Below are positions 7,805-23,426 of a DNA stretch of 64,000 bases, one piece after another. The position numbers were made by a program, and so were the translations under genes. Every line of letters starts with the position of its first letter. The first letter of the stretch is position 1. Below the pieces are notes generated by a model. That model was not told where the DNA came from. It was given only the letters and a program-made list of their open reading frames with translations, and did no database searches. Source of the DNA: Eubacteriales bacterium (GTDB lineage: Bacteria > Bacillota > Clostridia > Oscillospirales > SIG627); the NCBI GenBank assembly GCA_045543495.1, contig JAZQMO010000015.1:74796-138795 (forward strand), in the 5' to 3' direction.

Positions 7805-7833
7805 ATATTACCACTTTAATGCGTTAAAGTCAA
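7805..7833 (-). promoter_or_regulatory. Sigma-A-type promoter of the yerC-his operon, with an embedded imperfect palindrome
   Basis: On the minus strand: TTGACT (7828-7833), 17-nt spacer, TAATAT (7805-7810). The 18-bp near-palindrome ACTTTAAcgcaTTAAAGT (7813-7830) spans the spacer and the -35 box. Confidence 0.6.
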
Positions 7834-7855: not shown

Positions 7856-7895
7856 AAAAAGATGCGGGTCTTGGTCGGATCCGCATCTTTTTTTG
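7856..7895. terminator. Bidirectional-looking rho-independent terminator after the TIM-barrel/acyl-CoA-ligase gene
   Basis: Stem gatgcgg(g)tc / ga(t)ccgcatc, flanked by an A-run (7856-7860) and a T-run (7888-7895). It is the only obvious intrinsic terminator, other than the T-box terminators, between 21.7 kb and the his promoter. Confidence 0.75.
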
Positions 7896-7896
7896 A

Positions 7897-10401
7897 TTAT
7901 GCATCCAAATTCAGCTTCTTTGCAGCGTCTTCACGCATTTTGTATTTTAAGATCTTTCCGGCTGCATTCATGGGGAAGCTTTTCACAAACTCTACATAAC
8001 GAGGAACCTTGTGGCGTGCCATACTGGCCGCAACGAAGGACTTCATTTCCTCTTCTGTCATCGTTTCCCCATCCTTAAGGATGATGCAAGCCATAATCTC
8101 TTCTCCGTACTGCTTATCGGGAACTCCGATAACCTGCACATCACTGACCTTGGGATTGGTGTAAATAAACTCTTCGATCTCCTTGGGGTAAATATTTTCA
8201 CCGCCACGGATGATCATATCCTTCAGTCTCCCCGTGATCAGATAATTTCCTTCGGGTGTTCTGCAAGCAAGGTCACCGGTGTGAAGCCATCCATCGGCAT
8301 CAATGGTGGAAGCTGTGGCACCGGGCATTTTATAATAGCCCTTCATCAGATTGTAGCCTCTTGCAACAAATTCACCGTTTACACCGTCAGGACAATCCTC
8401 TCCCGTTTCGGGATCAATGATTTTACACTCCACATTGGCAAAAGCGCTTCCAACGGTTTCCGTTCTAACTTCAAGAGAATCGTAGTAGCTACTCATAGTG
8501 CAACCCGGGCTTGCTTCCGTTTGACCGTAAACCGAAACGATCTCCTTCATATTCATAACCTCGGTAGCCTTTTTCATCAAATCAGCGGGACAGTTTGCAC
8601 CTGCCATAATACCGGTACGAATGTGGGAGAAATCCGTTTTTTCAAAATCGGGGTGCTGCATCATAGCAATAAACATAGTAGGAACGCCGTTAAAGGTGGT
8701 AATATGCTCATTATGTACGCAGGCCAAAGCAGGCTTGGGAGAAAAATAAGGCAAGGGACACATAGTAGCACCGTGAGTCATAGCCGCGGTCATAGAAAGA
8801 ACCATACCGAAGCAGTGGAACATAGGCACCTGGATCATCATACGGTCAGCCGTGGAAAGATCCATATGGTCGCCGATATATTTACCGTTGTTGACTACAT
8901 TGTAATGAGTCAGCATAACACCCTTGGGAAAGCCTGTGGTGCCCGAGGTATACTGCATATTGCAAACATCGTCCTTATGAACGGCGGCAGCCATTCTGCG
9001 CACCTCTTCAAGAGGCGTTTGGGAGGCTCTTTCCAAAGCCTGATTCCATGTCATACAGCCCTTCTGACGAAAGCCAACCGTAATAACATTGCGAAGGAAG
9101 GGCAAACGCTTGGTATGAAGAGGCTCTCCTGCCTTGAGAGTTTCCAGCTCAGGACAGAGCTCGGCAATGATCTTACCGTAGTGAGTGTCTTTTGCTCCTT
9201 CAGTCATGATCAGGGTGTGAGTATCTGACTGACGGAGCAGATACTCTGCTTCGTGAATCTTGTATGCGGTATTCACCGTTACAAGCACCGCCCCGAGTTT
9301 TACCGTTGCCCAGAAGGCGATAAACCACTGGGGTACATTGGATGCCCAAACCGCAACATGAGTACCCGCTTTAACACCGAGATCAATCAATGCGCGAGCG
9401 AAGGTATCTACATCGTCACGAAATTCCTCATAGGTTCTGGTATAGTCAAGTGTTGTATATTTGAAGGCATACTGATCAGGAAATTCTTCCACCATACGGT
9501 CCAATACATCCGAGAAGGTGGCATCGATCAAAAGATCCTTTTTCCAAACAAACTGCCCTGTGTGTGCTCTGTTATAATAGAGATTTTTCTGTCCTCGCGA
9601 GGTATCGCCAAACTGCTTCATAAAGCCGACAAACTGGGCAAAGATGATCTCCATATCGTCCAGCTCCTCGCACCAAACGGGATCCCAGACCAAAGATACA
9701 TAGCCATCAAAATTCACAGAGCGAAGGGCAAGCATCATTTCCGAAATGGGAAGCTCCCCTTCCCCTGCCAGACAATACTCGATCTGATCGCCCATTTTTT
9801 TGGCGTCGATAAGCTGTACATGGCGAACATAAGCGCCCAGGTTCTTAATGACCTCTTCCGCACTTTCTCCAAAGCCAAAATACGCGGCAGACATATTCCA
9901 AAGAGCGGCAACATGATCGCTGGCAAAGCGCTCCAAAAGGTCTCTCAGAAGCTTGGTGTCACAGAAGGGGCCGTTTGTCTCGATCAAAAAGCTTACGCCC
10001 TGTTTTTCCGCAACGGGTAAAAACTCTGAAAGAAGATTAAAAATGTGATCGCAGACCGATTCCTTATCGCTTTGGTCATACGCTCTCAAACGGATACAGG
10101 GAATGTGCAGATTGGCACAGAATTCAAGACAGCTTTTGATCTCAATCTTCATTTGCTCGGCTTGAGAAACATTTCCCAGATCGCAAATGGTATCAATGCA
10201 GGGGATCTCAAGCTTCTTTTCATACAAACGGCGAAGGGTTGCAGCAGCGGCATAATCGTGAAAAGCGCCGTCCTTATCCGTAAACAGGCGGTTATAAATG
10301 TTGTGAAGCTCAATTCCTTGGAACCGCAAATCTTCGGCAATATTACAAAAATCTTCGAAGGTACTGTCATGCCAGCCCTTTGTGGAAAATGAAAGCTTCA
10401 T
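7897..10401 (-). CDS. Fusion protein: N-terminal xylose-isomerase-like TIM barrel (sugar-phosphate isomerase/epimerase superfamily) plus C-terminal AMP-forming acyl-CoA ligase
   Basis: 834 aa. Residues about 1-275 (MKLSFSTKGWHDSTFEDFCNIAEDLRFQGIELHN...) resemble AP_endonuc_2/xylose-isomerase-like TIM barrels. Residues about 290-834 carry the adenylate-forming motifs YTSGTTGFPKGVMLTH, GYGQTE-like VYGQTEAS, WLHTGD and GKILK. Confidence 0.8.
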   Translation of the reverse strand: MKLSFSTKGWHDSTFEDFCNIAEDLRFQGIELHNIYNRLFTDKDGAFHDYAAAATLRRLYEKKLEIPCIDTICDLGNVSQAEQMKIEIKSCLEFCANLHIPCIRLRAYDQSDKESVCDHIFNLLSEFLPVAEKQGVSFLIETNGPFCDTKLLRDLLERFASDHVAALWNMSAAYFGFGESAEEVIKNLGAYVRHVQLIDAKKMGDQIEYCLAGEGELPISEMMLALRSVNFDGYVSLVWDPVWCEELDDMEIIFAQFVGFMKQFGDTSRGQKNLYYNRAHTGQFVWKKDLLIDATFSDVLDRMVEEFPDQYAFKYTTLDYTRTYEEFRDDVDTFARALIDLGVKAGTHVAVWASNVPQWFIAFWATVKLGAVLVTVNTAYKIHEAEYLLRQSDTHTLIMTEGAKDTHYGKIIAELCPELETLKAGEPLHTKRLPFLRNVITVGFRQKGCMTWNQALERASQTPLEEVRRMAAAVHKDDVCNMQYTSGTTGFPKGVMLTHYNVVNNGKYIGDHMDLSTADRMMIQVPMFHCFGMVLSMTAAMTHGATMCPLPYFSPKPALACVHNEHITTFNGVPTMFIAMMQHPDFEKTDFSHIRTGIMAGANCPADLMKKATEVMNMKEIVSVYGQTEASPGCTMSSYYDSLEVRTETVGSAFANVECKIIDPETGEDCPDGVNGEFVARGYNLMKGYYKMPGATASTIDADGWLHTGDLACRTPEGNYLITGRLKDMIIRGGENIYPKEIEEFIYTNPKVSDVQVIGVPDKQYGEEIMACIILKDGETMTEEEMKSFVAASMARHKVPRYVEFVKSFPMNAAGKILKYKMREDAAKKLNLDA

Positions 10402-10403
10402 CC

Positions 10404-11783
10404 TTATACCTCCTCATAAATAATCTTATTCACAGCATTCAAATAGGCACGGATTCCTGCCCCGATAATATCGGTAGACAAGCCATTACCGGAATAAAGC
10501 TTGCCACCTGCTCTCAGTTTCACCAATGCAGAGCCCATTGCTTCTTTTCCTTCGGTAACAGACTGAATTTGGAAATCATCCAATTCATAGTGATAACCGA
10601 TGATCTGATCAATGGCACGGAAGGCGGCATCCACGGGACCGTCACCGATGCAAATCCCCTGAATGACCTCGTCCCCCTTCAAAAGGGAGATCTGAGCACT
10701 GGAGGAAATGATATTACCGTTATTGATCACATAGCTCTGAAGCTTATAGGTAGCGGGAACCTGCAAGGCAACACTTGCCACCATAGCATCCAATTCCTTA
10801 CTGCCGACACGCTTCTTTTGTGCAACGCGCAAGAATTCCTCGTAGACTCTTTTCTGATCCTCCTCAGACAGATCATATCCAAGCTTTGCAACTGCAACGT
10901 TTACGGCACTCTGATCGTCATTCTGATCCAAATAAATGGATTGGTCTTCCCCACCGCCCACAGTCATAGCGGATTTTTCATTTTTTACATTGGTGGTGAC
11001 CCAGCGGATCTGCTTCACAATACGGCTGAGCTCCGTGTAGCGAAGGCCAAAGGAAAAGCCGTTCTTTTCCCCACAGTTTTTGATGAGAAGCGCAAAGGTT
11101 TCCAAGGGAGTAACAGAGCAGTTTACATCGGTCTTGACAACGGTTGCACCGCTCTTTGCAGCCAAAATTGAGCCTGCAGCGGCAAGTCCGTTTTTATTAT
11201 CGCAGCGTACTCCGACAGGTACGGAAATATCAGAAGAAATTTCAGAAATGAAACCGGCGAAAGCATCGGGAAGCAGTTCTGCGGCAGAATCACAAAGAGA
11301 AACCTGAGTTGCTCCTGCCTCTACTGCGATCCCAATGATCTTTTTCAGAAAATCGCTTTCAGCACGGGTCGCATCCACGGCACAAAATTCAACCATCTGC
11401 ACCTTTTCTTTGGCGGCTTGGATCAGTGTCTTCACCCACTCCAGCATCTTATCAGGCTTTTTATGGGCAGAATATTCCATTCCAACGGGAGAAACGGGCA
11501 ATTCAACACGAATCATACCGTTTTCATTTCCTGCCAGTGCCGCAAGAGCATTTTCAAGACTTGAAAGATCCGAGCCACAGGCCACGGATAAAATACTGTT
11601 TTTCACAAAGGAAGAGCAGGTGCGAACAAACAAGCAATCTGCACGTACATTTTTAATTTCGGGAAGCTCGATCACATCAACTCTTAGTTTTTCAAGCTGA
11701 CGGGCAATTTCAAGCTTTTCCTTAAAACCAAAAACCTCATCCTCCGTGCAAAGCGTCGTGTCTGCAATTTTGATCTGCATCAT
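10404..11783 (-). CDS. 2-isopropylmalate synthase-like protein with degenerate active site and conserved C-terminal LeuA regulatory/dimerisation domain
   Basis: 459 aa. The HMGL-like barrel aligns to LeuA, but the catalytic motifs are replaced: DTTLRDGEQ becomes DTTLCTEDE, HxH(D/N)DLG becomes RCDNKNG, and GERAGN is absent. The C-terminus (GDGPVDAAFRAID...VKLRAGGKLYSGNGLSTDIIGAGIRAYLNAVNK) is a well-conserved LeuA_dimer-type domain. Confidence 0.75.
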   Translation of the reverse strand: MMQIKIADTTLCTEDEVFGFKEKLEIARQLEKLRVDVIELPEIKNVRADCLFVRTCSSFVKNSILSVACGSDLSSLENALAALAGNENGMIRVELPVSPVGMEYSAHKKPDKMLEWVKTLIQAAKEKVQMVEFCAVDATRAESDFLKKIIGIAVEAGATQVSLCDSAAELLPDAFAGFISEISSDISVPVGVRCDNKNGLAAAGSILAAKSGATVVKTDVNCSVTPLETFALLIKNCGEKNGFSFGLRYTELSRIVKQIRWVTTNVKNEKSAMTVGGGEDQSIYLDQNDDQSAVNVAVAKLGYDLSEEDQKRVYEEFLRVAQKKRVGSKELDAMVASVALQVPATYKLQSYVINNGNIISSSAQISLLKGDEVIQGICIGDGPVDAAFRAIDQIIGYHYELDDFQIQSVTEGKEAMGSALVKLRAGGKLYSGNGLSTDIIGAGIRAYLNAVNKIIYEEV

Positions 11784-11800
11784 AATTCTTCTCCTTTTCG

Positions 11801-12060
11801 AAAAAATAAAAAGTCCCTGAGGATAAACCTCAGGGACGAAACAATCCGCGGTACCACCCTGATTACCGCAACATGTGCGGTCATCTCAAGAGTTCTAACA
11901 AACTCATCACCATGATAACGGGGCTCGCCGTAGATGCTTACTGAATTTGGGCACCTCTGCTCCGGAATGAGACTTTGTTTGATCTACCTATTGTCTCGCA
12001 CCAAACGACAACTCTCTGCAAGGGATTTCACAAACAAATAATTCCTTCTCTGCATTTGAT
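11801..12060 (-). promoter_or_regulatory. T-box riboswitch leader, specifier read as CUC (Leu)
   Basis: Minus-strand RNA carries a Stem I AGAGAG bulge, a distal-loop TGGTGCGA, the T-box sequence AATCAGGGTGGTACCGCG (11847-11864) and the terminator gtccctgagg...cctcagggac plus a U-run (11801-11837). The specifier-loop context is ...aaaguCUCAuucc-ggagca, with the codon at 11969-11971. Confidence 0.85.
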
Positions 12061-12066
12061 TTTGGG

Positions 12067-12096
12067 ATTATAACACAAAACGTATGGATTTGTCAA
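12067..12096 (-). promoter_or_regulatory. Promoter driving the Leu T-box leader
   Basis: Minus strand: TTGACA (12091-12096), 18-nt spacer, extended -10 TGtTATAAT (TATAAT at 12067-12072). It lies directly after the oxidoreductase gamma-subunit stop. Confidence 0.7.
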
Positions 12097-12113
12097 CTGT
12101 TTTGCAAAACTTT

Positions 12114-12647
12114 TTAATAATTTGCACCCAGCTTCATGGCCTTCATATTGACCTCGATCATGTCGATCTTCTTGGGAGGGATGACCTTGTTCAGGGTCTT
12201 TACAACCAACTCCTCGTCAAACTCGCCGAGAACAGCAAGGATCTTACCCACCAGAATCATATTGGCAAGGTTGCCAAATCCGTTTTCACCTGCAAGCTTC
12301 GTTGCAGGCACATAATAAACCTGAACATCCTGGCGGTTGACCTTGCGTTCCACCAGAGAAGAGTCAACAAAGATCACGCCGCCGGGAGCAACGCTCTCTT
12401 CAAACTTATCCAAGGAGGGCAGGTTCATCGCCACGAGAATATCGGGCTTTGATACAATGGGAGAACCAACGGGTTCATCACTCACGATAACACTGCAGCT
12501 TGCAGTACCGCCACGCATTTCGGGGCCGTAGGAAGGAAGCCAGCTAACCTCTTTATCCTCAATCAATCCTTTGTAGGCAAGCATTTTGCCGGCAAACAGG
12601 ATACCCTGACCACCGAAACCGGAAAGAAGAATCTGTTTGGTACTCAT
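12114..12647 (-). CDS. 2-oxoacid:ferredoxin oxidoreductase, gamma subunit
   Basis: 177 aa. Contains [17 protein letters not shown], typical of OFOR gamma subunits. Overlaps the beta subunit by 4 nt. Confidence 0.85.
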
Positions 12648-13399
12648 TTTGTCTCCTCCTTTGCACTGCGATCCTTATAAACGCCTAAGGGATAATAAGG
12701 AATCATTTTTTCGTCGATCCATTCCAAGGCCTTCTGAGGTGTCATACCCCAGTTGGTGGGACAGGAGGACAGAACTTCGATCAAAGAGAAGCCCTTCTTA
12801 TCAAGCTGATTCTGGAAAGCCTTTTTAATGGCCTTCTTAGCATTCTTAATATTCTTTACATTGTTTACTGTGACACGCTCCAAATATTCGGGGCCATCCA
12901 GCTGAGAAAGCATTTCGCAAACCTTGATGGGGAATCCGCAAGCATTGGTATCTCTGCCGTAGGGAGAGGTTTGGGTCACCTGTCCGGGGAGAGAGGTAGG
13001 AGCCATCTGACCGCCGGTCATACCGTAAATTGCATTGTTGATAAAGATAATGGTGATATTTTCATTTCTGGCGGCAGCGTGAACTGTTTCAGCCATACCA
13101 ATAGAGGCAAGGTCGCCGTCTCCCTGATAAGTAAACACCACGTGGTTTTCGGGATCACTTCTCTTGACACCGGTGGCCACAGCGGGTGCTCTGCCGTGGG
13201 CAGCCTCGATCATATCGCAATTAAAGTAATTATATGCCATAACGGAGCATCCGACGGGTGCAACACCGATCGTGCGTCCTTCAATGCCGAGTTCGTCAAT
13301 AACCTCGGCCACCAAACGGTGAACGATACCGTGGGTACAGCCGGGGCAATAGTGCAAAGCAACATCAGCCATTGCTTTGGGTTTTTCAAATACTACCAT
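12644..13399 (-). CDS. 2-oxoacid:ferredoxin oxidoreductase, beta (TPP-binding) subunit
   Basis: 251 aa. Contains YCPGCTHGI and the GDGDLASIG...NNAIYGMTGGQ TPP motif. Confidence 0.9.
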   Translation of the reverse strand: MVVFEKPKAMADVALHYCPGCTHGIVHRLVAEVIDELGIEGRTIGVAPVGCSVMAYNYFNCDMIEAAHGRAPAVATGVKRSDPENHVVFTYQGDGDLASIGMAETVHAAARNENITIIFINNAIYGMTGGQMAPTSLPGQVTQTSPYGRDTNACGFPIKVCEMLSQLDGPEYLERVTVNNVKNIKNAKKAIKKAFQNQLDKKGFSLIEVLSSCPTNWGMTPQKALEWIDEKMIPYYPLGVYKDRSAKEETK

Positions 13400-13409
13400 A
13401 TTTCACACC

Positions 13410-14471
13410 TCACTTTTGTGCATCCAAAATTGCCTGCAGAACCTGCTCGGGAGACGGGATCATACCGCCGACACGGTTGCAGAGAGTAACGGGAACCTTA
13501 CAATTGGAAGCAAGTCTGACATCTTCAATCATCTGACCCATGCTGAGCTCAACGGAAATGATCTCTTTTACGTGCTCAGCAGCCTTCTCGAAGGGAGCCT
13601 TGGGGAAAGGCCAAAGAGTAATGGGACGGATGAGACCAACCTTGATCCCCTGCTTTCTGGCTTCGTTGATCGCATTCTTGGAAACACGGGCAGCAATACC
13701 GAAAGCGGCAACGCAGATCTCTGCATCATCCATCATATACTCTTCATAAAGAGTTTCCTTCTCTTCAATGGTCTTATATCTTTCGTATCTTTTGAAGTTT
13801 TCTCTCTCAAGGGCATCGGGCTCCAGGAAAAGAGAGTTCACGATGTTATGCTCGCGCTCCAATTTGGTACCGGTGGTAGCCCAAGGCTTTTCGGGAGAAG
13901 GCTTAACATCAAAATCAAGGCTGACAGGCTCCATCATCTGACCCATGGTACCGTCTGCCAGGATCATGGCAGTCATACGGTAGGTATCAGCAAGCTCAAA
14001 TCCGCGAACGGTAAGCTCGGCCATTTCCTGCACGGAGCTGGGTGCCAAAACGATCATACGGAAGTCACCGTGACCGCCGCCCTTGGTGGCCTGAAAATAA
14101 TCGGACTGGCTGGGCTGAATACCGCCGAGACCGGGGCCGCCACGCTGAACGTTCACAACCAGTGCGGGCAGATCAGCACCTGCGAGATAGGAAAGACCCT
14201 CGCTCTTAAGAGAAATTCCGGGGCTTGAGGAAGAGGTCATAACTCTCTTTCCGGTAGAGGAAACGCCGTAAACCATATTGATGGCGGCAATTTCACTTTC
14301 CGCCTGCAGGAAGGTACCGCCGATCTTAGGCATTTTCTTTGCCATATAAGCAGCAACCTCAGTCTGAGGAGTAATGGGATAACCGAAGTAATGACGGCAG
14401 CCTGCCACGATGGCGGCCTCCGCAATGGCTTCGTTTCCTTTCATCATAATCTTTTCTGCCATTTTATTCAC
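13410..14471 (-). CDS. 2-oxoacid:ferredoxin oxidoreductase, alpha subunit (VorB/KorA-like)
   Basis: 353 aa. Contains KGNEAIAEAAIVAGCRHYFGYPITPQTE, QAESEIAAINM, RGGPGLGGIQPSQSDY and GGGHGDF. From memory, this pattern is often annotated as VorB-type. Substrate cannot be read from the sequence. Confidence 0.85.
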   Translation of the reverse strand: MNKMAEKIMMKGNEAIAEAAIVAGCRHYFGYPITPQTEVAAYMAKKMPKIGGTFLQAESEIAAINMVYGVSSTGKRVMTSSSSPGISLKSEGLSYLAGADLPALVVNVQRGGPGLGGIQPSQSDYFQATKGGGHGDFRMIVLAPSSVQEMAELTVRGFELADTYRMTAMILADGTMGQMMEPVSLDFDVKPSPEKPWATTGTKLEREHNIVNSLFLEPDALERENFKRYERYKTIEEKETLYEEYMMDDAEICVAAFGIAARVSKNAINEARKQGIKVGLIRPITLWPFPKAPFEKAAEHVKEIISVELSMGQMIEDVRLASNCKVPVTLCNRVGGMIPSPEQVLQAILDAQK

Positions 14472-14674
14472 CTCTCTACCTTAATTACACAGTCGGGACA
14501 CATCATTGCACAGAAGGCACACCCGACACAAAGAGATTGATCTGTAATTTCTGCGGGATGATGGCCCTTCATATTGATCTTGTCAGAAGCAAGACGGATC
14601 AACTTTTTGGGACAGGCATTGACACAAAGCCCGCAACCTTTACAAAAATCGGTTCGAAACGTAAGTTTTGCCAT
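14468..14674 (-). CDS. 2-oxoacid:ferredoxin oxidoreductase, delta subunit (2x[4Fe-4S] ferredoxin-like)
   Basis: 68 aa with two CxxCxxCxxxCP motifs (CKGCGLCVNACP and CVGCAFCAMMCP). Overlaps the alpha-subunit start. Confidence 0.85.
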   Translation of the reverse strand: MAKLTFRTDFCKGCGLCVNACPKKLIRLASDKINMKGHHPAEITDQSLCVGCAFCAMMCPDCVIKVER

Positions 14675-14716
14675 AGAAACTTCTCCTTTAACTATGAATT
14701 TCTATATTGATTGTTC

Positions 14717-15373
14717 TTAATAGTACTTTTTTTGCAGTGCCAGCGGAAATAGAGGCCGGATGGATGGAAGAAGCTCATCAAACAACTCCTCCTTCACGGT
14801 GGTAAAGCAAAGGGGCAATCCTGAAAGCTGAGAAAACTCTTTTGCCTTCTCAAGGGTGGCTAAAACATCCTCTGCCGTGGTTTCTTCCCCAAGGTTAGAA
14901 TTGTTCACAATTCCCGTAAAGCGAATCCCGGAGGCAATTTCCATTTCCCGCATCACCTCTAAAAGGGATTGGGAATCTCGGGTGAGAGGCCTATAAAAAT
15001 TCACCACCAAAAGCATTTCATAAGAGTTTTCCTTCAATAGCTCAGGGGTCAATCTTCCGAGCGCCAAGGCTCCTCGGTCATCACCGCCAATATCGAGAAT
15101 AAAGCTTGTTTCCTTATCGTCAACAACGCAGTACATATCCTGCGGAAGAGACGGAATGTCCACATTGGTATTGGCATATTCCGAGGAAATGAGACGGATT
15201 CCCGCTTCTTTCAATTCTTGTGCACTGTCCTTGGTACGGAAATAAGGATTGACAATATCAAGATCCGCAATCGCAACCTCTTTTTCTTTCTTCAAATGAA
15301 AAGCAAGATTGATTGCAACATTGGTCTTGCCGCTGCCGTAATGACCCGCAAGGATCACAACTCTTTTAGCCAT
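14717..15373 (-). CDS. P-loop NTPase (SIMIBI class, MinD/Mrp/CooC-like), function unknown
   Basis: 218 aa. Has an N-terminal Walker A (VVILAGHYGSGKTNVAINLA) and a Walker-B-like ILDIGGDD. Overlaps the ilvE stop by 8 nt. Confidence 0.6.
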   Translation of the reverse strand: MAKRVVILAGHYGSGKTNVAINLAFHLKKEKEVAIADLDIVNPYFRTKDSAQELKEAGIRLISSEYANTNVDIPSLPQDMYCVVDDKETSFILDIGGDDRGALALGRLTPELLKENSYEMLLVVNFYRPLTRDSQSLLEVMREMEIASGIRFTGIVNNSNLGEETTAEDVLATLEKAKEFSQLSGLPLCFTTVKEELFDELLPSIRPLFPLALQKKYY

Positions 15374-16445
15374 TGCAAACCTTTACACACCAAGCGTGGG
15401 TATCCTCAATCTTACCCCACTGAATACCGGTGAGCTGATCGTAAAGCTTTTGGGTCAATTCGCCGATCTTGTTGTCACAAACAACATATTCATTTCCCTT
15501 GTAGAAAAGCTGACCGATGGGGGAAACAACGGCGGCGGTGCCGGTACCCCAAGCCTCTTCCAGCTTGCCGTTTGCAGCAGCCTCAAAAAGCTCATCCACG
15601 CTGATCAGTCTCTCTTCTACGGTGTATCCCCATTCCTTGAGAAGCTCAACACAGCTCTTTCTGGTAATACCGGGAAGAACGGAGCCGGTCAACTCGGGAG
15701 TGATGATCTTGCCGTCGATCTTGAACATAACGTTCATCGCACCGACTTCTTCAATATACTTTCTTTCCACACCGTCAAGCCAAAGCACCTGAGTATAGCC
15801 GTTTTTCTCGGCTCCCTCCCCTGCTCTGAGGGTTGCGGCATAGTTACCGCCGCACTTGGCATAACCGGTACCGCCACGAACCGCACGAACATCCTGAGAC
15901 TCAATGGCGATCTTAACGGGGTTAATACCCTCGGCATAGTAAGCACCGACGGGAGAACAGATGATAGCAAAAGTTGCATTCTTTACGGCGTGAACTCCGA
16001 GGTGAGGATCGTTACCGTAAAGGAAAGGACGGATGTAGAGGCTTGTGCCATCGGAATGAGGCACCCAATCCTTTTCCAGTTCAACCAAAGTCTTGAGAAT
16101 ATCAAGGCAACCCTCCTCATCCAAAAGAGGCAGGCAGAGACGCTCGGCACTGTTGTTCAATCTCTTGATATTTTCCATGGGGCGGAACAGCTTAATGGAG
16201 CCGTCCTTGGTGCGATATGCCTTCATACCTTCAAAGATCTCTACGCCGTAGTGCAGAACAGTGGCAGCGGGATGAAGGGGAATCGGACCGAAGGGAACGA
16301 TTCTGGCATCATGCCAGCCCTCTTCCACACTGTAATCCATCAAGAACATATGATCGGTAAAGATCTTGCCGAATCCAAGCTTGGACTCATCAGCGGGCTT
16401 TGCCTTCAAAGAGGCAGTTTTTTCAATGGAAATGGAATACTTCAT
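15366..16445 (-). CDS. ilvE: Branched-chain amino acid aminotransferase
   Basis: 359 aa class-IV aminotransferase. Contains FGKIFTDHMF, YGVEIFEGMKAYR, GGTGYAKCGGNYA and TGTAAVVSPIG. Confidence 0.9.
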   Translation of the reverse strand: MKYSISIEKTASLKAKPADESKLGFGKIFTDHMFLMDYSVEEGWHDARIVPFGPIPLHPAATVLHYGVEIFEGMKAYRTKDGSIKLFRPMENIKRLNNSAERLCLPLLDEEGCLDILKTLVELEKDWVPHSDGTSLYIRPFLYGNDPHLGVHAVKNATFAIICSPVGAYYAEGINPVKIAIESQDVRAVRGGTGYAKCGGNYAATLRAGEGAEKNGYTQVLWLDGVERKYIEEVGAMNVMFKIDGKIITPELTGSVLPGITRKSCVELLKEWGYTVEERLISVDELFEAAANGKLEEAWGTGTAAVVSPIGQLFYKGNEYVVCDNKIGELTQKLYDQLTGIQWGKIEDTHAWCVKVCNG

Positions 16446-16465
16446 AACTCTTCTCCTTTTTTATA

Positions 16466-18754
16466 TTAAAGCATGTTTCTTTGAATTTTACCGCTTACAG
16501 TCTTGGGAAGCTCATCACAGAACACCACAAGACGGGGATACTTATAGGGAGCGGTATGCTCTTTGACATAATTCTGAATTTCTTTTTTCAATTCCTCGCT
16601 GGGCTCGGTACCCTTAGTTAGAACGATGCTTGCTTTGACGATCTGACCACGAACCTCATCAGGTGCGGCAGATACGCCACATTCCAATACATAAGGTAGC
16701 TCCATAATGACGCTTTCAATTTCAAACGGGCCGATACGGTAGCCGGAGGATTTAATCACGTCGTCAGCTCTTCCCACATACCAGAAGAAGCCGTCCTCAT
16801 CACGCCAAGCAATATCGCCGGTGTGATAATAACCGTCACGAATGGCCTCTGCGGTCTTTTCGTCGTCATTGTAATAGCCCACAAATAAGCCACAGGGAGC
16901 ACCGTTTTTCAGATTGATGACAACCTCACCCGATTCACCGGTTGCAACAGGCTTTCCATCGCTGTCTAAAAGCTCAACATCATAGATGGGAGCGGGCTTA
17001 CCCATAGAACCGATCTTATGAGAAGCACCGATCATATTACCGATGATCATGGTGCTTTCCGTCTGCCCGAAGCCCTCCAGGATCTGAAGGCCTGTAGCCT
17101 TTTCAAACTGACGGTAAACCTCGGGGTTCAAGGCTTCACCTGCTGTCGTCATATGACGAACAGAGGAAAGATCGTATTTGGTAATATCCTGCTTCACCAG
17201 CATACGAAGCATGGTTGGAGGTGCACAGAAGGTGGTGATTTGATACTTGGCAAACATCGGAAGGATCTTGGAAGCATCAAAACGATCAAAGTCATAAACA
17301 AAGATCGGTGCTTCGCACAGCCACTGACCGTACATCTTGCCCCACATAGATTTTGCCCAGCCGGTATCGGAAATGGTAAAGTGCAGTCCATCCGGCTCAA
17401 CGGAATGCCAATACTTTGCAGTATGGAAATGTCCGAGAGGGTACTTATGATTATGTGCGGCGATCTTGGGATAGCCCGAGGTGCCCGAAGTAAAGAACAT
17501 CAAAAGCAGATCGTCTCCGCAGGGAGACTCCTCGGTACGGTTAAAGTGAGAGCTGTAAAGAGGATATTCCTCATTAAAGCTTCTCCAGCCTTCTTTTTCT
17601 CCGTTGACCAAAAGCTTAAATTCCAATTCAGGGTGCTTAGCGGCGGCCTTTTCTGCCTCATTGGCAACTTCCCCGTCAGCCGTGCAAATAATACCACGAA
17701 CCCCTGCGGCACCAAAGCGATAATCAAGATCATGCTCAAGGAGCTGATTGGGTGCGGGGATGGCAACGGCACCAAGCTTATTCAGGCCAAGCATGGCAAA
17801 CCAGAACTGATAGTGGCGCTTTAAGATCAGCATGACCTTATCACCCTTTTTAATACCAAGGGACTTAAAATAGTTGGCACACTGATTGGAAGCCTTCTTA
17901 ATATCCTTAAAGGTAAAGCGACGCTCGGTCATATCCTCGGAAATGTGAAGCATCGCAAGCTTCTCGGGCTCACGGGAGGCAAGCTCATCGATCAGATCAA
18001 AGGCAAAGTTAAAGGATTCGGTATTCTTAAACGCAATGGAGGTAGGAGTACCGTTTTCATCCTCTTTCGTATCAATGAACTTATGATAAATGCGTTCCTT
18101 GGTGTCCTTTGTCAGCTTCTTCACACCGCTGATCGCCTTTTTGGGACTCAGCTCGGGAATGGGTTCACCGGTGGGATTGAGAACAATGGCGTAGAACACA
18201 CAGTCCTGCTCCTTCACGGCGATCATACCGTGAGGGGTATCACTGTCAAAATAAATACTGTCACCGGGGCCGAGGATCTCCTGATGCTCACCCACCTGAA
18301 CTAAAAGATGCCCTTCCACCACAAGGTCAATCTCCTGACCTGCGTGGGTTGTCAATTCAATATCACGGTTCTGTGCATTTTCGTCAAATTTGCTAATTAC
18401 AAACAGGGGCTCCGCAATACGGTTCTGAAAAGCATAGGCAAGGTTATAATAGGTCATACCGTGTGCATTGGCAATTTCCTGTCCTTCACCGGAGCGAGTC
18501 ACGGTATAGGAATTCAAGGTGGGGCTGTGACCCTCGATGATATCCGTTACGTTTACATTCAGGGCCAAGGCACATCGATAAATAAAGGCAAAGTTTAAGT
18601 CACTTCTTCCCTCTTCACAGTCCTTATATTCCTCAATGCTCACGCCTGTTTTGATGGCCATTTCTTCGCAAGTCAAGCCTTCGATCTCTCTCAGGTCACG
18701 AATTCTGGCGGCCATTTCTTGAATTTTGTATTCAAGTCCTGTAATCTGTTTCAT
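16466..18754 (-). CDS. Fusion protein: XRE-type HTH plus cupin (PuuR-like regulator module) plus medium-chain (Macs/ACSM-like) acyl-CoA synthetase
   Basis: 762 aa. Residues about 10-70 form the HTH (IRDLREIEGLTCEEMAIKTGVSIEEYKDCEEG). Residues about 110-195 form the cupin (THAGQEIDLVVEGHLLV...GDSIYFDSDTPHGM). The remainder is an adenylate-forming enzyme with FFTSGTSGYPK, GFGQTES, YHTGD, GRADDVIKSSGYRIGPFEIES and SGKIQR. Confidence 0.85.
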   Translation of the reverse strand: MKQITGLEYKIQEMAARIRDLREIEGLTCEEMAIKTGVSIEEYKDCEEGRSDLNFAFIYRCALALNVNVTDIIEGHSPTLNSYTVTRSGEGQEIANAHGMTYYNLAYAFQNRIAEPLFVISKFDENAQNRDIELTTHAGQEIDLVVEGHLLVQVGEHQEILGPGDSIYFDSDTPHGMIAVKEQDCVFYAIVLNPTGEPIPELSPKKAISGVKKLTKDTKERIYHKFIDTKEDENGTPTSIAFKNTESFNFAFDLIDELASREPEKLAMLHISEDMTERRFTFKDIKKASNQCANYFKSLGIKKGDKVMLILKRHYQFWFAMLGLNKLGAVAIPAPNQLLEHDLDYRFGAAGVRGIICTADGEVANEAEKAAAKHPELEFKLLVNGEKEGWRSFNEEYPLYSSHFNRTEESPCGDDLLLMFFTSGTSGYPKIAAHNHKYPLGHFHTAKYWHSVEPDGLHFTISDTGWAKSMWGKMYGQWLCEAPIFVYDFDRFDASKILPMFAKYQITTFCAPPTMLRMLVKQDITKYDLSSVRHMTTAGEALNPEVYRQFEKATGLQILEGFGQTESTMIIGNMIGASHKIGSMGKPAPIYDVELLDSDGKPVATGESGEVVINLKNGAPCGLFVGYYNDDEKTAEAIRDGYYHTGDIAWRDEDGFFWYVGRADDVIKSSGYRIGPFEIESVIMELPYVLECGVSAAPDEVRGQIVKASIVLTKGTEPSEELKKEIQNYVKEHTAPYKYPRLVVFCDELPKTVSGKIQRNML

Positions 18755-18771
18755 TCAACTCTCCATTTTCC

Positions 18772-19040
18772 GGGACAAAAAAGCACTCGTCCCAAAGGTA
18801 TTTCCTTGAGACGAGTGCGAAAACACCCGCGGTACCACTCAAATTGCTGCAAAGCAGCCACTCAGGATCCAACAATCCGTATGCATTAACGCAGCAATCA
18901 CGGAGAAGTTCTACTCCCTTTCGGTTTCTTCCTCTCAGCTCAGAAGCTACAATCACGGGATCTGTATCCAATGGCTTGCACCGACCGCCATCTCTCTGGG
19001 GAACAAATTTCCGAAAAACTCTTCCTCAACGCCTTTAATA
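18772..19040 (-). promoter_or_regulatory. T-box riboswitch leader, specifier read as GUA (Val)
   Basis: Minus-strand RNA carries AGAGAG, a distal-loop CGGTGCAAG, the T-box sequence AATTTGAGTGGTACCGCGGG (about 18826-18845) and the terminator gcactcgtc...gacgagtgc plus a U-run (18776-18818). The specifier context is ccg-ugauuGUAg-cuuc-ugagc, with the codon at 18948-18950. Confidence 0.85.
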
Positions 19041-19047
19041 CCTTATT

Positions 19048-19076
19048 ATTGTAACATCAAAAGAAGCAGATGTCAA
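19048..19076 (-). promoter_or_regulatory. Promoter driving the Val T-box leader
   Basis: Minus strand: TTGACA (19071-19076), 17-nt spacer, TGtTACAAT (TACAAT at 19048-19053). It starts about 24 nt after the upstream paralog's stop. Confidence 0.7.
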
Positions 19077-19099
19077 GTTTTTTATTGAATTTTCAATGT

Positions 19100-21364
19100 T
19101 TACAGCTTATTGCGCTGGATTTTTCCGCTGATGGTCTTGGGAAGCTCGTCACGGAATACCACCACACGGGGATATTTGTAGGGAGCGGTATGCTCTTTGA
19201 CATAGCGCTGAATCTCTTTTTTCAGCTCTTCCGTAGGCTCTGTTCCCTTGGTCAACACGATGCTCGCCTTCACCACCTGACCTCTTACCTCATCGGGCAC
19301 GGCAGAAACACCGCATTCCAATACATAAGGAAGCTCCATGATCACGCTTTCGATCTCAAACGGCCCGATACGGTAACCGGAGGATTTGATCACGTCATCC
19401 ACACGACCGACATACCAGAAATATCCGTCCTCATCACGCCAAGCAGTATCACCGGTGTGATAAAGCCCGTCGTGCCAAGCCTCGGTCGTTTTTTCGGTAT
19501 CCTTATAGTACTCTTTGAAAAGACCGCAAGGAATGCTCTTATCGGTGTGAATTACGATCTCGCCCACCTCACCGGTTGCAACGCTGTTGCCGTCGGGATC
19601 CACAATGTCAAGATCAAACTGAGGAGACGCCTTACCCATAGAGCCGATCTTGGGGGTATCCCCTGCAAGATTTGCAATCACCAGGGTGGTTTCGGTCTGG
19701 CCGAAGCCCTCCATAATTTCAAGGCCCGTTGCCTCCTTAAAGCGCTTGAACACCTCAGGGTTCAAGGCTTCGCCCGCCGTTGTCATATGATGGATCGAGG
19801 AAAGATCGTACTTAGACAGATCGCCGCGGATCAACATACGAAGCATAGTAGGAGGAGCACAGAAGGTCGTAATGTTATAACGGGCAAACATGGGAAGGAT
19901 ATCGTTTTCATCAAAACGGTCAAAGTCATATACAAATACCGCACCCTCGCAAAGCCACTGACCGTAAAACTTACCCCAAAGGGATTTGCCCCAACCGGTA
20001 TCGGAAATGGTAAGGTGAAGACCTTCTCTTTCACAGCAATGCCAATACTTTGCCGTAACAAAATGGCCCAATGCATAGGTGTGCTTATGAGACGCCATTT
20101 TGGGATTTCCGGTGGTGCCGGAGGTAAAGAACATCAAGGCTGCTTCATCCCCACCGGGGGTATCCTCGGAGCGAACGAACTTGCGGGAGAAGAGACGGAA
20201 TTCTTCATCAAAATCGTGCCAATTGTCCTTCTTACCGCCAACCAGGATCATGGTTTTCATTTCGGGACATTCTTTCGCAGCTGCCTCGGCAATATCGGAA
20301 ACATCTCCGTCAGCGGTACAAACGATGGCAGAAACACCTGCGGCACGGTAACGGTATACAAAATCGTGCTCTTTAAGCTGATTGGTTGCAGGGATGGCGA
20401 CGGCTCCGATCTTGTGAAGGGCGACCATTGCAAACCAGAACTGATAGTGGCGCTTTAACACCAGCATTACCTTATCCCCTTTCTTAATTCCGAGGGAGGT
20501 AAAGTAGTTGGCGCACTGATTGGAATAATGCTTGATATCACGGAAGGTGAAGCGACGCTCCGTTTTATTTTTATCCAAATGGAGCATGGCAAGCTTATCG
20601 GGATAAGCATTGGCGATCTCGTCTACGATATCAAAACCAAAATTGAACGTATCGGTATCGGTAAAATCAATCTTTTTCAGAGAACCGTTTTCATTCTCTT
20701 CCAACTTGACAAATTTTTCACAGATCAGCTTTTGAGAATTCTTGGCGGCTACCAGATTCTTTACCACCGAGCCTTCCTTTACTTCATCACCGGGAAGAAC
20801 CACGGCACAGAACACACAGTCCTTTCCGTCCACAGCGATCATACCGTGGGGAGTGGAGCTGTTGTAATAAATACTGTCCCCTTCCTCCAGAACCTCCGTG
20901 TGACTGCCAACCTGAACCTTCAATTTACCGCTGATCACAAGATCAAATTCCTGACCGCTGTGAGTAGCAAGGTTGATGGGCTTGTTTTGCAGGGAAGCAT
21001 CGTATTCGTAGCGAACCCAATAGGGCTCGGCGATCTTATCACGGAATTTGGGGGCAAGGTTTTGAATGGTGATGCCATCCTCCTTCGCCGTTTGCTGCCC
21101 CTGCCCTTTACGGGTGACAGTGTAAGAAGAAAGAAGTGCGCTCTTTCCTTCCAAAAGATCGGTAATGCCGATTCCAAACTCAAGGCAGCATTTATGCAAA
21201 AATGAAAAAGGAAAGTCCAGTTGACCCTTTTCGTACTTCTCATACTCGTCGACACAAACCTCAGTACGCTTTGCCATTTCTTCAATGGAAAGTCCGGAGA
21301 TTTCTCTCATTTCGCGAATTCGAAGCGCGACCTCATTCAATTTTTCAACAGATAGTGTAGACAT
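19100..21364 (-). CDS. Fusion protein: XRE-type HTH plus cupin plus medium-chain acyl-CoA synthetase (paralog of 16466-18754)
   Basis: 754 aa from ATG 21364 (MSTLSVEKL...), preceded by the RBS aaaggagga. The longer ORF-track start at 21493 lies inside the T-box leader. It has the same domain order and motifs as its paralog (FFTSGTTGNPK, GFGQTET, YHTGD, SGKIQR), and the C-terminal part is nearly identical. Confidence 0.85.
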   Translation of the reverse strand: MSTLSVEKLNEVALRIREMREISGLSIEEMAKRTEVCVDEYEKYEKGQLDFPFSFLHKCCLEFGIGITDLLEGKSALLSSYTVTRKGQGQQTAKEDGITIQNLAPKFRDKIAEPYWVRYEYDASLQNKPINLATHSGQEFDLVISGKLKVQVGSHTEVLEEGDSIYYNSSTPHGMIAVDGKDCVFCAVVLPGDEVKEGSVVKNLVAAKNSQKLICEKFVKLEENENGSLKKIDFTDTDTFNFGFDIVDEIANAYPDKLAMLHLDKNKTERRFTFRDIKHYSNQCANYFTSLGIKKGDKVMLVLKRHYQFWFAMVALHKIGAVAIPATNQLKEHDFVYRYRAAGVSAIVCTADGDVSDIAEAAAKECPEMKTMILVGGKKDNWHDFDEEFRLFSRKFVRSEDTPGGDEAALMFFTSGTTGNPKMASHKHTYALGHFVTAKYWHCCEREGLHLTISDTGWGKSLWGKFYGQWLCEGAVFVYDFDRFDENDILPMFARYNITTFCAPPTMLRMLIRGDLSKYDLSSIHHMTTAGEALNPEVFKRFKEATGLEIMEGFGQTETTLVIANLAGDTPKIGSMGKASPQFDLDIVDPDGNSVATGEVGEIVIHTDKSIPCGLFKEYYKDTEKTTEAWHDGLYHTGDTAWRDEDGYFWYVGRVDDVIKSSGYRIGPFEIESVIMELPYVLECGVSAVPDEVRGQVVKASIVLTKGTEPTEELKKEIQRYVKEHTAPYKYPRVVVFRDELPKTISGKIQRNKL

Positions 21365-21390
21365 AGCATGATCCTCCTTTTTAAGAAAAT

Positions 21391-21656
21391 AAAAATAAAA
21401 AAAACGCCTCAAAGAAATTCCTTTGAGACGGGTAATTAACTTACTCGCGGTACCACTCAAATTGCTGCAGGGCAGCCACTCAGGATCCAACAATCCGTAT
21501 GCATTGACGCAGCAATCACGGGAGACATCTACTTGCAGAACGCTTTCGGATCTCCGGCTCAGAAGGGATGGGCAATTTTAGAATACGTTATCGGTTCGCA
21601 CCAAGCACCGACTCTCTGAAAACTTATTTCTAATGCCGTCTTCATCATAGCCTTTA
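21391..21656 (-). promoter_or_regulatory. T-box riboswitch leader, specifier read as AUC (Ile)
   Basis: Minus-strand RNA carries AGAGAG, a distal-loop TTGGTGCGA, the T-box sequence AATTTGAGTGGTACCGCGAG (about 21444-21463) and the terminator cgtctcaaag...ctttgaggcg plus a U-run (21391-21430). The specifier context is ugcc-cAUCc-cuuc-ugagcc, with the codon at 21567-21569. Confidence 0.85.
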
Positions 21657-21663
21657 TGCTAGG

Positions 21664-21691
21664 ATTATACCACTTGTGATTCATTTGTCAA
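21664..21691 (-). promoter_or_regulatory. Promoter driving the Ile T-box leader
   Basis: Minus strand: TTGACA (21686-21691), 16-nt spacer, TATAAT (21664-21669). Confidence 0.7.
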
Positions 21692-21712
21692 GAGTTTTTT
21701 TCAAAAAAATAT

Positions 21713-21740
21713 AAAAAACCCGAGAAAATCTCGGGTTTTT
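21713..21740 (-). terminator. Rho-independent terminator after fhs (end of the pur operon)
   Basis: Stem cccgag/ctcggg (21719-21724 / 21730-21735), flanked by an A-run and a T-run. It lies 4 nt downstream of the fhs stop. Confidence 0.75.
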
Positions 21741-21743
21741 AGT

Positions 21744-23426
21744 TTAAAAGAGTCCTGTGATCTTGCCATCCTCATCCACATCGATCTTCTCTGCAGCGGG
21801 AACCTTGGGAAGACCCGGCATCGTCAGAATATCACCGGTCAGAACCACAATAAATCCGGCACCGGCGGATACCTTCACATTCTTTACCGTAACGGTAAAG
21901 TGCTCGGGTGCGCCAAGTTTGGTAGGATCGTCAGAAAAGCTGTACTGGGTTTTGGCAACACAGATGGGCAGCCCTGCAAAGCCAAGCTCGGTCAATTGCT
22001 GAACCTGCTTTTTGGCGTTAGGTGTAAGAACGATGCCATCTCCTCCGTAAACCTTGCGAACGATCTGCTCGATCTTTTCTTCAATGGAGGCATCCAGTTC
22101 ATAGGAGAAGGTGAAATCACCTTTCTCTTCTTCGCAAAGGCGTACGACCTCTCTGGCAAGGGCTTCTCCACCCTTTCCGCCTTCTGCCCAAACAGTGGAG
22201 AGAACCGTATTTACTCCAAGCTCTCTGCACTTATTGACAATAAAGTCGATCTCATTGTCGGTATCCGTGGGGAAACGGTTTACGGCAACAACACAAGGAA
22301 GCTTGTATACATTCTTAATGTTGGAAACATGACGAAGTAAATTGGGAATTCCCTTTTCAAGTGCTTCAATATCTTCATCGCCAAGCTCTGTTTTTGCTCG
22401 GCCGCCGTGCATTTTCAATGCACGAACAGTGGCCACGACCACAACAGCATTGGGAACGGGCCCTGCCATACGGCACTTGATATCAAGGAATTTTTCTGCA
22501 CCAAGATCGGCACCGAAGCCTGCTTCCGTAATGGTGTAATCACCCATTTTCAGGGCAAGCTTGGTAGCCATTACCGAGTTACAGCCATGAGCAATATTGG
22601 CAAAAGGACCGCCGTGAACAAAGGCAGGAGTCCCTTCCAAAGTCTGAACCAAATTGGGCTTAATAGCATCCTTCAAAAGCGCCGCCATAGCACCTACCGC
22701 CTTCAGATCCCCTGCCGTAACAGGCTTATCATCATAGGTATAACCTACAATAATACGGGAAAGCCTTTCTTTGAGATCGGTAATGGAGTTGGAAAGACAG
22801 AAAATCGCCATGATTTCACTTGCTACCGTGATCTCAAATCCATCCTCACGGGGAACACCGTTGGCTTTTCCGCCGAGACCGTCCGTCAGGAAGCGAAGCT
22901 GCCTGTCATTCATATCAACACAGCGCTTCCAAGTGATCTTTCTGACATCAATTCCAAGAGAATTTCCCTGCTGAATATGGTTGTCAAGCATGGCCGCCAA
23001 AAGATTGTTGGCCGCACCGATGGCGTGAAAGTCACCGGTAAAGTGAAGATTGATATCCTCCATGGGAACAACCTGAGCATAACCGCCGCCTGCAGCACCA
23101 CCCTTCACACCGAATACAGGTCCGAGAGAAGGCTCACGAAGGGCAACGGTTACATCCTTGCCGATTCTCTTCAAGCCATCTGCAAGGCCGATGGTGGTCG
23201 TGGTCTTTCCCTCCCCTGCGGGGGTAGGAGTAATGGCAGTCACAAGGATGAGCTTTCCATCCTTGCGATCCGTTTCCTTCAAAAGCATAGGATCAATTTT
23301 TGCTTTATACTTGCCATATTGCTCCAAATACTTTTCATCCACATGGGCAACAGCAGCAATTTCGGTGATGGGGCGCATTACGCATTCCTGTGCAATTTCA
23401 ATATCTGTTTTGTATGCCATATTCAT
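21744..23426 (-). CDS. fhs: Formate--tetrahydrofolate ligase
   Basis: 560 aa. Contains [24 protein letters not shown] and [20 protein letters not shown]. It begins 6 nt after the purL stop. Confidence 0.95.

Follow-up and report, generated by a model that had tools for sequence, protein, structure and literature searches.

T-boxes that control genes for branched-chain amino acids are well known in the Firmicutes, e.g., the Leu T-box of the B. subtilis ilv-leu operon, in which uncharged tRNA stabilises an antiterminator. Members of the same RNA family occur in an array of three T-box-controlled units located on the minus strand at 7897-21692 of a 64,000-nt stretch of DNA from a Eubacteriales bacterium (GTDB Oscillospirales; SIG627; assembly GCA_045543495.1, contig JAZQMO010000015.1, positions 74,796-138,795 of the forward strand). 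This whole stretch is referred to as the window, and all coordinates are positions within it. The specifier codons AUC and CUC of the array are the usual Ile and Leu specifiers of known T-boxes, and an Ile T-box in front of a branched-chain aminotransferase gene is listed for B. anthracis in the 2008 T-box catalogue (PMC2494555). Whereas the known T-boxes of this group gate de novo ilv/leu enzymes, those of the window are situated upstream of genes encoding acyl-CoA ligases and a ferredoxin oxidoreductase, and, unlike in the cited cases, three switches with three different specifiers are combined in one co-directional block. Neither a CoA ligase nor a ferredoxin oxidoreductase under T-box control is found in the 2008 catalogue or its supplements (PMC2494555).

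The second closely related system is the isoacid metabolism of the rumen. According to references listed in PMC7356843, rumen anaerobes form Leu, Val, and Ile through carboxylation of isovalerate, isobutyrate, and 2-methylbutyrate, respectively, and the route studied by Allison and co-workers in the 1960s-70s follows the same chemistry as predicted here, from the acid via acyl-CoA and 2-oxoacid to the amino acid. A further reference on these carboxylation routes is PMC10658910. The work of Allison and co-workers was physiological and enzymological. Neither acid-specific ligase genes nor riboswitch control were found for the isoacid route in the open full-text literature, and no earlier description of such a T-box-partitioned array was found in the full-text literature searched, which leaves out most subscription journals. 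The RNA elements, the pathway chemistry, the Macs/MbcS-like ligases, the oxidoreductase, and the aminotransferase IlvE are all of known kinds. Three features appear to be new: T-boxes precede genes for acyl-CoA ligases and a ferredoxin oxidoreductase, each of the three ligases of the array stands behind a specifier of its own, and fused or associated sensor-like modules are present.

We consider it probable that the locus serves to convert branched short-chain acids to the branched-chain amino acids, a reading that all computational tests applied to it supported. An AMP-forming ligase would convert the branched acid to its acyl-CoA, a ferredoxin oxidoreductase of the 2-ketoisovalerate:ferredoxin oxidoreductase (VOR) type would reductively carboxylate the acyl-CoA to the 2-oxoacid, and IlvE would transaminate the latter to the amino acid, the predicted pairs being 2-methylbutyrate and Ile, isobutyrate and Val, and isovalerate and Leu. 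T-boxes favour read-through when the cognate tRNA is uncharged, and each leader is expected to pass RNA polymerase only in this situation. The Ile switch (AUC) would thereby gate ligase paralog 1, the Val switch (GUA) would gate ligase paralog 2 together with the shared IlvE, a SIMIBI-class P-loop nucleoside triphosphatase (NTPase), and the subunits VorDABG, and the Leu switch (CUC) would gate a LeuA-derived protein and a fusion of a TIM barrel with a third ligase (TIM-ligase). The substrates, the carboxylating direction, and the sensor roles of the N-terminal helix-turn-helix (HTH)-cupin module of the first two ligases and of the LeuA regulatory domain are predictions from sequence.

For comparative analysis, 80 related loci encoding ligase relatives were collected, with flanks of 10 kb, in a scan of one genome per species. 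Nearly all are metagenome-assembled genomes from the gut of ruminants, other herbivores or humans and carry the labels Acutalibacteraceae, Oscillospiraceae, Ruminococcus or Clostridia; the closest is a Clostridia metagenome-assembled genome from sheep colon with 85% protein identity. A look-up of the exact protein sequence of ligase paralog 2 gave no entry. T-boxes upstream of homologous genes were extracted from every related locus and aligned class by class (Ile, Val, Leu). T-boxes were searched with the Rfam covariance model RF00230 (gathering score 93 bits) in the whole window and in a local scan of 21200-21800, promoters (sigma-70 consensus, 12 positions) and intrinsic terminators were located by consensus scan, and protein families were assigned with Pfam and NCBIfam models, the latter with curated equivalog cut-offs. 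The regulatory elements of the array are the following.

21664-21691, minus strand: promoter P1 of the Ile unit (TTGACA, 16-nt spacer, TATAAT, TG-extended; 12/12 positions of the sigma-70 consensus)
21421-21657, minus strand: T-box leader 1, specifier AUC (Ile) at 21569-21567 (RF00230, 86.2 bits)
21430-21405, minus strand: terminator of leader 1 (consensus scan)
19048-19076, minus strand: promoter P2 of the Val unit (TG-extended; 11/12 positions)
18804-19038, minus strand: T-box leader 2, specifier GUA (Val) at 18950-18948 (RF00230, 95.6 bits)
18818-18783, minus strand: terminator of leader 2 (consensus scan)
12067-12096, minus strand: promoter P3 of the Leu unit (TG-extended; 12/12 positions)
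11829-12059, minus strand: T-box leader 3, specifier CUC (Leu) at 11971-11969 (RF00230, 114.2 bits)
11837-11813, minus strand: terminator of leader 3 (consensus scan)
7856-7892, symmetric, no single strand: intrinsic terminator at the array end (16 stem pairs, T-runs on both strands)

An earlier note, made from the sequence alone, had placed three promoter-plus-T-box modules at these positions, and the RF00230 search together with the promoter and terminator scan recovered all of them. In the whole-window scan leaders 3 and 2 exceed the gathering score. Leader 1, found in the local search, stays below this curated Rfam cut-off, yet all 219 model positions were matched with E = 2.6e-19, and leaders of its class are present in 56 other loci. 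All three leaders align to the Stem I model positions (K-turn base, specifier loop, and the AGAGA / GGUGNRA distal motifs) and contain the T-box sequence GGUGGUACCGCG or GAGUGGUACCGCG with a UGGU bulge, and each terminator shares sequence with the antiterminator's 3' strand. The UGGU bulge would pair with the A73 discriminator of tRNA-Ile, tRNA-Val, and tRNA-Leu. No tRNA genes were found within the 64-kb window. In the related loci L040 and L045, only Leu-type leaders passed the Rfam cut-off. Considering that leaders of the Ile and Val classes score near or under the gathering score, standard annotation would miss most such switches.

In the window, the 3' half of the Ile leader shares 87% identity with that of the Val leader. 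Gene conversion between both leaders was examined and rejected, the identity within genomes (0.80) being hardly higher than that between genomes (0.76), and the likeness is best attributed to common descent and constraint, not to homogenisation.

Across the related leaders, the specifier triplets behave as codons. The covariance-model alignments place CUC(A) at 11971-11969, GUA(G) at 18950-18948, and AUC(C) at 21569-21567, in full agreement with the positions read in the earlier note, and all three are codons of branched-chain amino acids. The outcome that the note had named as refuting, specifier loops at other positions or codons of other amino acids, hence did not occur. The layout of codon, one nucleotide, 4-bp lower stem, and GAGC is common to the three leaders. 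All 57 Ile-class leaders carry AUC, followed by A in 32, C in 21, and G in 4 cases. Among the 78 Val-class leaders GUA occurs 74 times and GUC four times, with G (69) or A (9) as the next nucleotide, and the 28 Leu-class leaders contain CUC (23), CUG (4), or CCC (1), followed by A (15), G (12), or U (1). Thus, except for a single CCC, the triplets vary only synonymously and the flanking positions drift, which is the behaviour expected of a decoded triplet.

The Ile leader is atypical: it occurs without the AGUA/GAA S-turn, has a C after the codon, and shows a reduced specifier loop with a 5-nt 3' bulge. For this reason independent comparative evidence was sought across the related loci. The consensus fold of 46 Ile-class leaders comprises 50 pairs, 29 of which show compensatory changes, and the specifier appears as a 5-nt bulge N-AUC-N between two helices. 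In the upper helix adjacent to this bulge, columns 48-116 and 49-115 were changed on both sides in 20 and 19 sequences, respectively. Synonymous-only variation in up to 78 leaders per class and covariation around the Ile bulge support the specifier positions as predicted.

The T-box with the deviating CCC is located at L040:1250-1494; its score is high (121.5 bits), and CCC, a proline codon, stands in a canonical specifier loop (GAA-CCC-A). Downstream of it, a divergent gene pair at 1565-5411 encodes a LeuA-like protein with 42% and a TIM-ligase with 60% identity. This module might serve another amino acid in its clade.

Besides the terminators of the T-boxes themselves, strong terminators occur only at the two borders of the array, at 21740-21714 where the upstream fhs ends and at 7856-7892; the remaining terminator-like matches are weak and occur at chance frequency (18 found versus 15.2 expected). 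The statement that no further terminators precede the array end was thus borne out by the scan. P2 begins 24 nt past the paralog 1 stop codon with no terminator in between, and P3 sits 18 nt past the VorG stop codon. As no terminator separates the units in the window, transcripts that pass one switch are expected to run into the next. The idea of a nested read-through control is therefore plausible for the window, but each unit has a strong promoter of its own, and nesting is not conserved. In many species the end of ligase 1 is likewise about 50 nt or less from the next promoter, without a terminator, and terminators occur before the Leu unit in other species, e.g., L005 and L010. Strong promoters equivalent to P1 precede the Ile-class leaders in 26 related loci, and a strong promoter of its own is usual for each leader across the related loci. 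The conserved design is that of three tandem switch-controlled units.

The same gene order recurs in the 80 loci, in line with the earlier reading of gene order and specifiers: T-box, ligase 1, T-box, ligase 2, P-loop NTPase, VorDABG, IlvE, T-box, LeuA-like protein, TIM-ligase. IlvE is sometimes situated straight after ligase 2, as in the window. All three T-boxes are present in 22 loci, including the window, and in L044, L048, L060, L066-68, L070, and L073 only the Val T-box with ligase 2 was observed.

Two related loci contain deviating elements of other kinds. In L045 (7344-9555) a further T-box precedes genes encoding a pyridoxal phosphate-dependent enzyme of Cys/Met metabolism and a homoserine O-succinyltransferase. 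This is presumably a methionine unit unrelated to the array; it occupies the place that ligase 1 takes in other loci. In L069 (2960-3125) a divergent LeuA-like gene follows a promoter and a short leader that ends in a terminator hairpin and lacks a T-box; this leader could be a different attenuator or riboswitch.

The gene content claimed for the three units agrees with the Pfam and NCBIfam domain calls. The first two ligases are encoded as follows.

19100-21364, minus strand: ligase paralog 1, 754 aa, XRE-HTH, cupin, and AMP-forming acyl-CoA synthetase (Pfam HTH_19, Cupin_2, AMP-binding, AMP-binding_C)
16466-18754, minus strand: ligase paralog 2, 762 aa, same architecture (Pfam domains)

An earlier start of paralog 1 at an upstream TTG was not retained, as the reading of the sequence gives an ATG at 21364. 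Both paralogs are 63% identical, and MbcS is the best NCBIfam model for both of them (447.3 bits for paralog 1 and 441.9 bits for paralog 2). By these scores they are classed as relatives and not orthologs of MbcS. The closest solved relative is Macs of M. acetivorans (PDB 3ETC), which matches the whole ligase domain of paralog 2 with 620 bits and E = 4e-185. The ligase domain is the best-conserved part of the proteins and all AMP-binding motifs are kept; the orthologs are named "AMP-binding protein" in the databases. In comparison to Macs and MbcS, to which their ligase domains are close, the proteins of the window possess an additional XRE-HTH and cupin module of about 240 aa.

Macs reportedly prefers 2-methylbutyrate. 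Purified MbcS is selective for 2-methylbutyrate and isobutyrate, isovalerate and butyrate being poor substrates and acetate being unused (PMC10026030). Such a preference agrees with the array, where the two Macs-like ligases follow the Ile and Val T-boxes and the ligase of the Leu unit belongs to another family. Paralog 1 is proposed to be a 2-methylbutyrate-CoA ligase and paralog 2 an isobutyrate-CoA ligase.

MbcS of S. aureus feeds exogenous 2-methylbutyrate and isobutyrate into lipid synthesis (PMC10026030), and with MbcS as the best model for both paralogs, the ligases of the array might likewise provide the branched acyl-CoAs with which the synthesis of branched-chain fatty acids (membrane lipids) is primed. 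We regard this as very improbable. In contrast to MbcS, the ligases occur as two paralogs behind different T-boxes beside VOR and IlvE, with which the ligases are operonic in dozens of species, and both score far under the MbcS equivalog cut-off. Each ligase is situated behind a T-box that names an amino acid, and for every regulated gene of known function in the T-box catalogue, the specifier corresponds to the amino acid that the gene helps to supply (PMC2494555). Moreover, fatty acid synthesis genes were not seen among the annotated genes of the window.

Residues that distinguish the Ile-class (57) from the Val-class (81) ligases are few. In the ligase domain they include G460/A467, L463/M470, L562/M569, and A565/G572, each at least 96% conserved within its class, and fall in the GW[G/A]KS segment and just past GFGQTE. 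These segments may line the acyl pocket as in acetyl-CoA synthetases, a mapping to which little weight is given. The small number of conserved differences, together with the fact that ligase substrates are inferred only and that the third ligase has no specific family assignment, leaves room for the assumption that the switches are read correctly and the ligases take other acids, e.g., propionate, which would yield 2-oxobutyrate for Ile, with de novo ilv/leu enzymes finishing the synthesis. Rumen organisms do carboxylate other acids, such as acetate to pyruvate (PMC7356843). Nevertheless, such a use appears improbable: the nearest characterised relatives prefer alpha-branched C4/C5 acids, MbcS being inactive on acetate (PMC10026030), the alpha subunit of the oxidoreductase is of the VorB type, and de novo ilv/leu genes are not linked to the array, either among the annotated genes of the window or among the conserved genes of the related loci.

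The enzymes that would be shared by the three branches follow paralog 2 in the Val unit. They include all four subunits (delta, alpha, beta, gamma) of a VOR-type 2-oxoacid:ferredoxin oxidoreductase (OFOR) with the expected domains.

15366-16445, minus strand: IlvE, branched-chain aminotransferase (PRK13357, 479.6 bits versus cut-off 307; Pfam Aminotran_4)
14717-15373, minus strand: SIMIBI-class P-loop NTPase, 218 aa (Pfam CbiA, 30 bits)
14468-14674, minus strand: OFOR delta, ferredoxin-like with 2x[4Fe-4S] (Fer4 families; PorD_KorD, 46 bits versus cut-off 60)
13410-14471, minus strand: OFOR alpha, VorB type (NF005507 (VorB), 544.5 bits versus 399; POR_N, PFOR_II)
12644-13399, minus strand: OFOR beta, thiamine pyrophosphate-binding (TPP_enzyme_C; NCBIfam OFOR beta models below cut-offs)
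12114-12647, minus strand: OFOR gamma (Pfam POR, 137 bits; NCBIfam gamma models below cut-offs)

IlvE also passes TIGR01123 (400.3 bits versus 250). Genes for activation, carboxylation, and transamination are thus linked in one conserved array. The subunits are those of the known four-subunit VOR; here the carboxylating direction is predicted and a SIMIBI NTPase is linked.

OFORs are reversible, and VOR-type enzymes work oxidatively in amino-acid fermenters (compare PMC3942289). IlvE and VOR could hence oxidise branched-chain amino acids to acyl-CoAs in fermentation, with the ligases being peripheral. This catabolic direction is given hardly any credence. T-boxes turn genes on when an amino acid is scarce, a response that does not suit a catabolic unit. 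AMP-forming ligases spend ATP to activate acids to acyl-CoA and do not conserve it, and the ADP-forming synthetases or phosphotransacylase plus kinase used by energy-conserving fermenters are not present in the locus. The anabolic direction assumed for assimilation of branched acids is instead favoured by the match between specifiers and products, by the classical carboxylation routes, and by the neighbouring operons, which are anabolic as well (pur, fhs, his, pyr).

The P-loop NTPase is found in every related locus that extends far enough, always located between the Val-class ligase (or IlvE) and VorD, and most of its orthologs are named "hypothetical protein". No sequence-level match was found for it in the PDB. 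Its AlphaFold2 model has a mean pLDDT (predicted local distance difference test score) of 86.7, and the best Foldseek matches are the NG domain of the signal recognition particle protein Ffh, ATPase-type HypB, and the Mrp-like AF_226, with template modelling (TM) scores of 0.5-0.6. A role as NifH-like electron donor was considered and dropped due to the absence of any conserved cysteine motif. The protein is regarded as a generic SIMIBI NTPase that belongs to no specific family and may help to assemble or mature the OFOR.

The N-terminal approximately 240 aa of both ligase paralogs, not mentioned in the earlier note, form a complete XRE-HTH and cupin module (Pfam HTH_19, HTH_31, Cupin_2), which aligns end to end with the stand-alone XRE-cupin regulator PDB 1Y9Q. 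In an exhaustive search for homologs of this module, many stand-alone proteins of the 1Y9Q type (about 185 aa) were found along with full-length fusions, which form at least three clusters at 50% identity, and the fused architecture is present in all of the 120 best full-length homologs. Of the 18 class-specific conserved positions that separate both paralogs, 11 are situated inside the HTH-cupin module, which suggests a class-specific ligand. The module could be a ligand sensor or part of a BirA-like enzyme-repressor arrangement, as predicted from its domains. In BirA-type fusions an adenylate-forming enzyme is likewise joined to a DNA-binding domain; their domain families are unrelated to those of the ligases described here, for which no operator was found at the three promoters and a DNA-binding role is predicted only.

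With a complete regulator-like module fused to both ligases and the majority of the class-specific positions inside it, these proteins might mainly be transcription factors that use the ligase domain as a sensor, the locus then being regulatory and not metabolic. It is extremely unlikely that this is the case. As described above, the ligase domain is best conserved and retains its motifs. Furthermore, the three promoter classes, compared in up to 77 loci each with the -35 and -10 boxes as anchors, showed no conserved palindrome that could serve as operator of the HTH domain. In these promoter regions the spacers vary, and a T-tract/A-tract recurs upstream of -35. As an operator candidate this tract was rejected, since it resembles an ordinary UP element.

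The Leu unit has a different composition.

10404-11783, minus strand: LeuA-derived protein, 459 aa (HMGL-like barrel and LeuA_dimer, Pfam)
7897-10401, minus strand: TIM-barrel-ligase fusion, 834 aa (AP_endonuc_2, AMP-binding, AMP-binding_C)

The LeuA-derived protein scores under the cut-off of every LeuA equivalog model (NCBIfam), and its orthologs are named "hypothetical protein" by NCBI. Compared with solved LeuA structures, the RDGEQ motif is replaced by C-T-E-D-E and the HxH motif by R-C-D. The Arg and Asp of RDGEQ as well as both histidines of HxH are therefore gone, and this loss is conserved in 34-40 orthologs. Cys12 does not vary, and conservation reaches at least 90% for Cys134, Cys164, and Cys194, which are situated where the former active-site strands end. 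The most conserved part is the C-terminal LeuA_dimer regulatory domain. Judged by these residues, the protein is not a LeuA. Its designation as a pseudoenzyme holds with respect to the lost LeuA catalytic residues, but the conserved active-site cysteines leave another function possible. It may contain a new metal or redox/catalytic site, or may be a pure sensor subunit.

A precedent for the latter is given by pseudoenzyme regulators of the HisZ type, in which a dead paralog of an amino acid enzyme acts as an allosteric sensor subunit. Like HisZ, the LeuA-derived protein has lost catalytic residues and keeps a regulatory domain, in this case for Leu, and it is translationally coupled to an enzyme that it possibly regulates, the TIM-ligase, which starts 2 nt past the LeuA-like stop codon. 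Unlike in HisZ, the active-site cysteines could form a new catalytic or metal site, and the partner role is predicted only.

For the TIM-ligase, PRK12583 reaches 650 bits versus a cut-off of 832 (NCBIfam). Positions that are at least 97% conserved make up 8% of the TIM domain versus 46% of the ligase domain, and only marginal PDB sequence matches were obtained for the TIM barrel (window region 7897-8750, xylose-isomerase-like). Due to its low conservation a catalytic role of the barrel seems unlikely, which suggests a scaffold or docking role. The TIM-ligase is proposed to be the isovalerate-CoA ligase.

From these accessory modules one may derive a two-layer, amino-acid-addressed control of each ligase, in which the T-box responds to tRNA charging and a protein sensor to the free amino acid or acid. 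We put this forward tentatively and rather doubt it as a whole. In case of the Ile and Val ligases, the fused XRE-HTH and cupin module would be the sensor, possibly as a BirA-like combined enzyme and repressor. In case of the Leu ligase, the LeuA-derived pseudoenzyme with its Leu-binding regulatory domain would dock on the degenerate TIM barrel.

Several points weigh against assimilation of branched acids as the function of the array. The shared enzymes are located behind the Val switch alone, so that starvation for only Ile or only Leu would induce just a ligase; this caveat would be lifted if basal read-through or other VOR/IlvE copies suffice. The family assignments are uneven: paralogs 1 and 2 fall far short of the 850-bit equivalog cut-off of MbcS, the third ligase matches only generic fatty-acid-CoA ligase models, and the beta, gamma, and delta subunits match generic OFOR models only, below their cut-offs. 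Substrates and flux are what we infer from such assignments. Furthermore, the coupling of genes and switches is not uniform. In L018, L039, L046, L050, and L064, the pair of LeuA-like protein and TIM-ligase occurs without a T-box directly after IlvE or VorG, and one divergent pair, in L040, is located behind the CCC (Pro) T-box.

The array is bordered by units of other function. Upstream, the formate-tetrahydrofolate ligase gene fhs is located at 21744-23426. It belongs, together with purL (23433-27125), to the annotated genes of a minus-strand run resembling a purine operon, upstream of which a ZMP/ZTP riboswitch was detected on the minus strand at 34003-34100 (57.5 bits versus gathering score 39), an element of known kind. 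On its 3' side the array is followed by a hisR-his operon, a separate unit of a known system that has a promoter and an operator of its own. The region 7485-7833 holds the first gene of this operon, which encodes a 96-aa TrpR-family protein of the YerC/YecD type that is likely to be the histidine repressor HisR. The palindrome ACTTTAATGCGTTAAAGT at 7813-7830 is a perfect HisR-type site and overlaps a promoter-like site at 7833-7805. A hisZ gene is located 400 bp downstream in the window.

Isoacids are used as feed supplements for ruminants. The array provides candidate genes for the approximately sixty-year-old gut and rumen pathway that builds Leu, Val, and Ile from branched acids. In dozens of uncultured Oscillospirales species, which come from humans as well as from ruminants and other herbivores, the specifier codons label the three ligases with their predicted amino acid products. 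An old physiological observation on isoacid use thereby becomes testable at the level of enzymes and regulation, and the fused HTH-cupin modules and the LeuA-derived partner suggest additional allosteric or transcriptional layers, as predicted. If the carriers also lack ilvBCD and leuABCD, they would obtain branched-chain amino acids by way of the array only, and it would then represent the genetic basis of isoacid dependence in fibre-degrading Oscillospirales.

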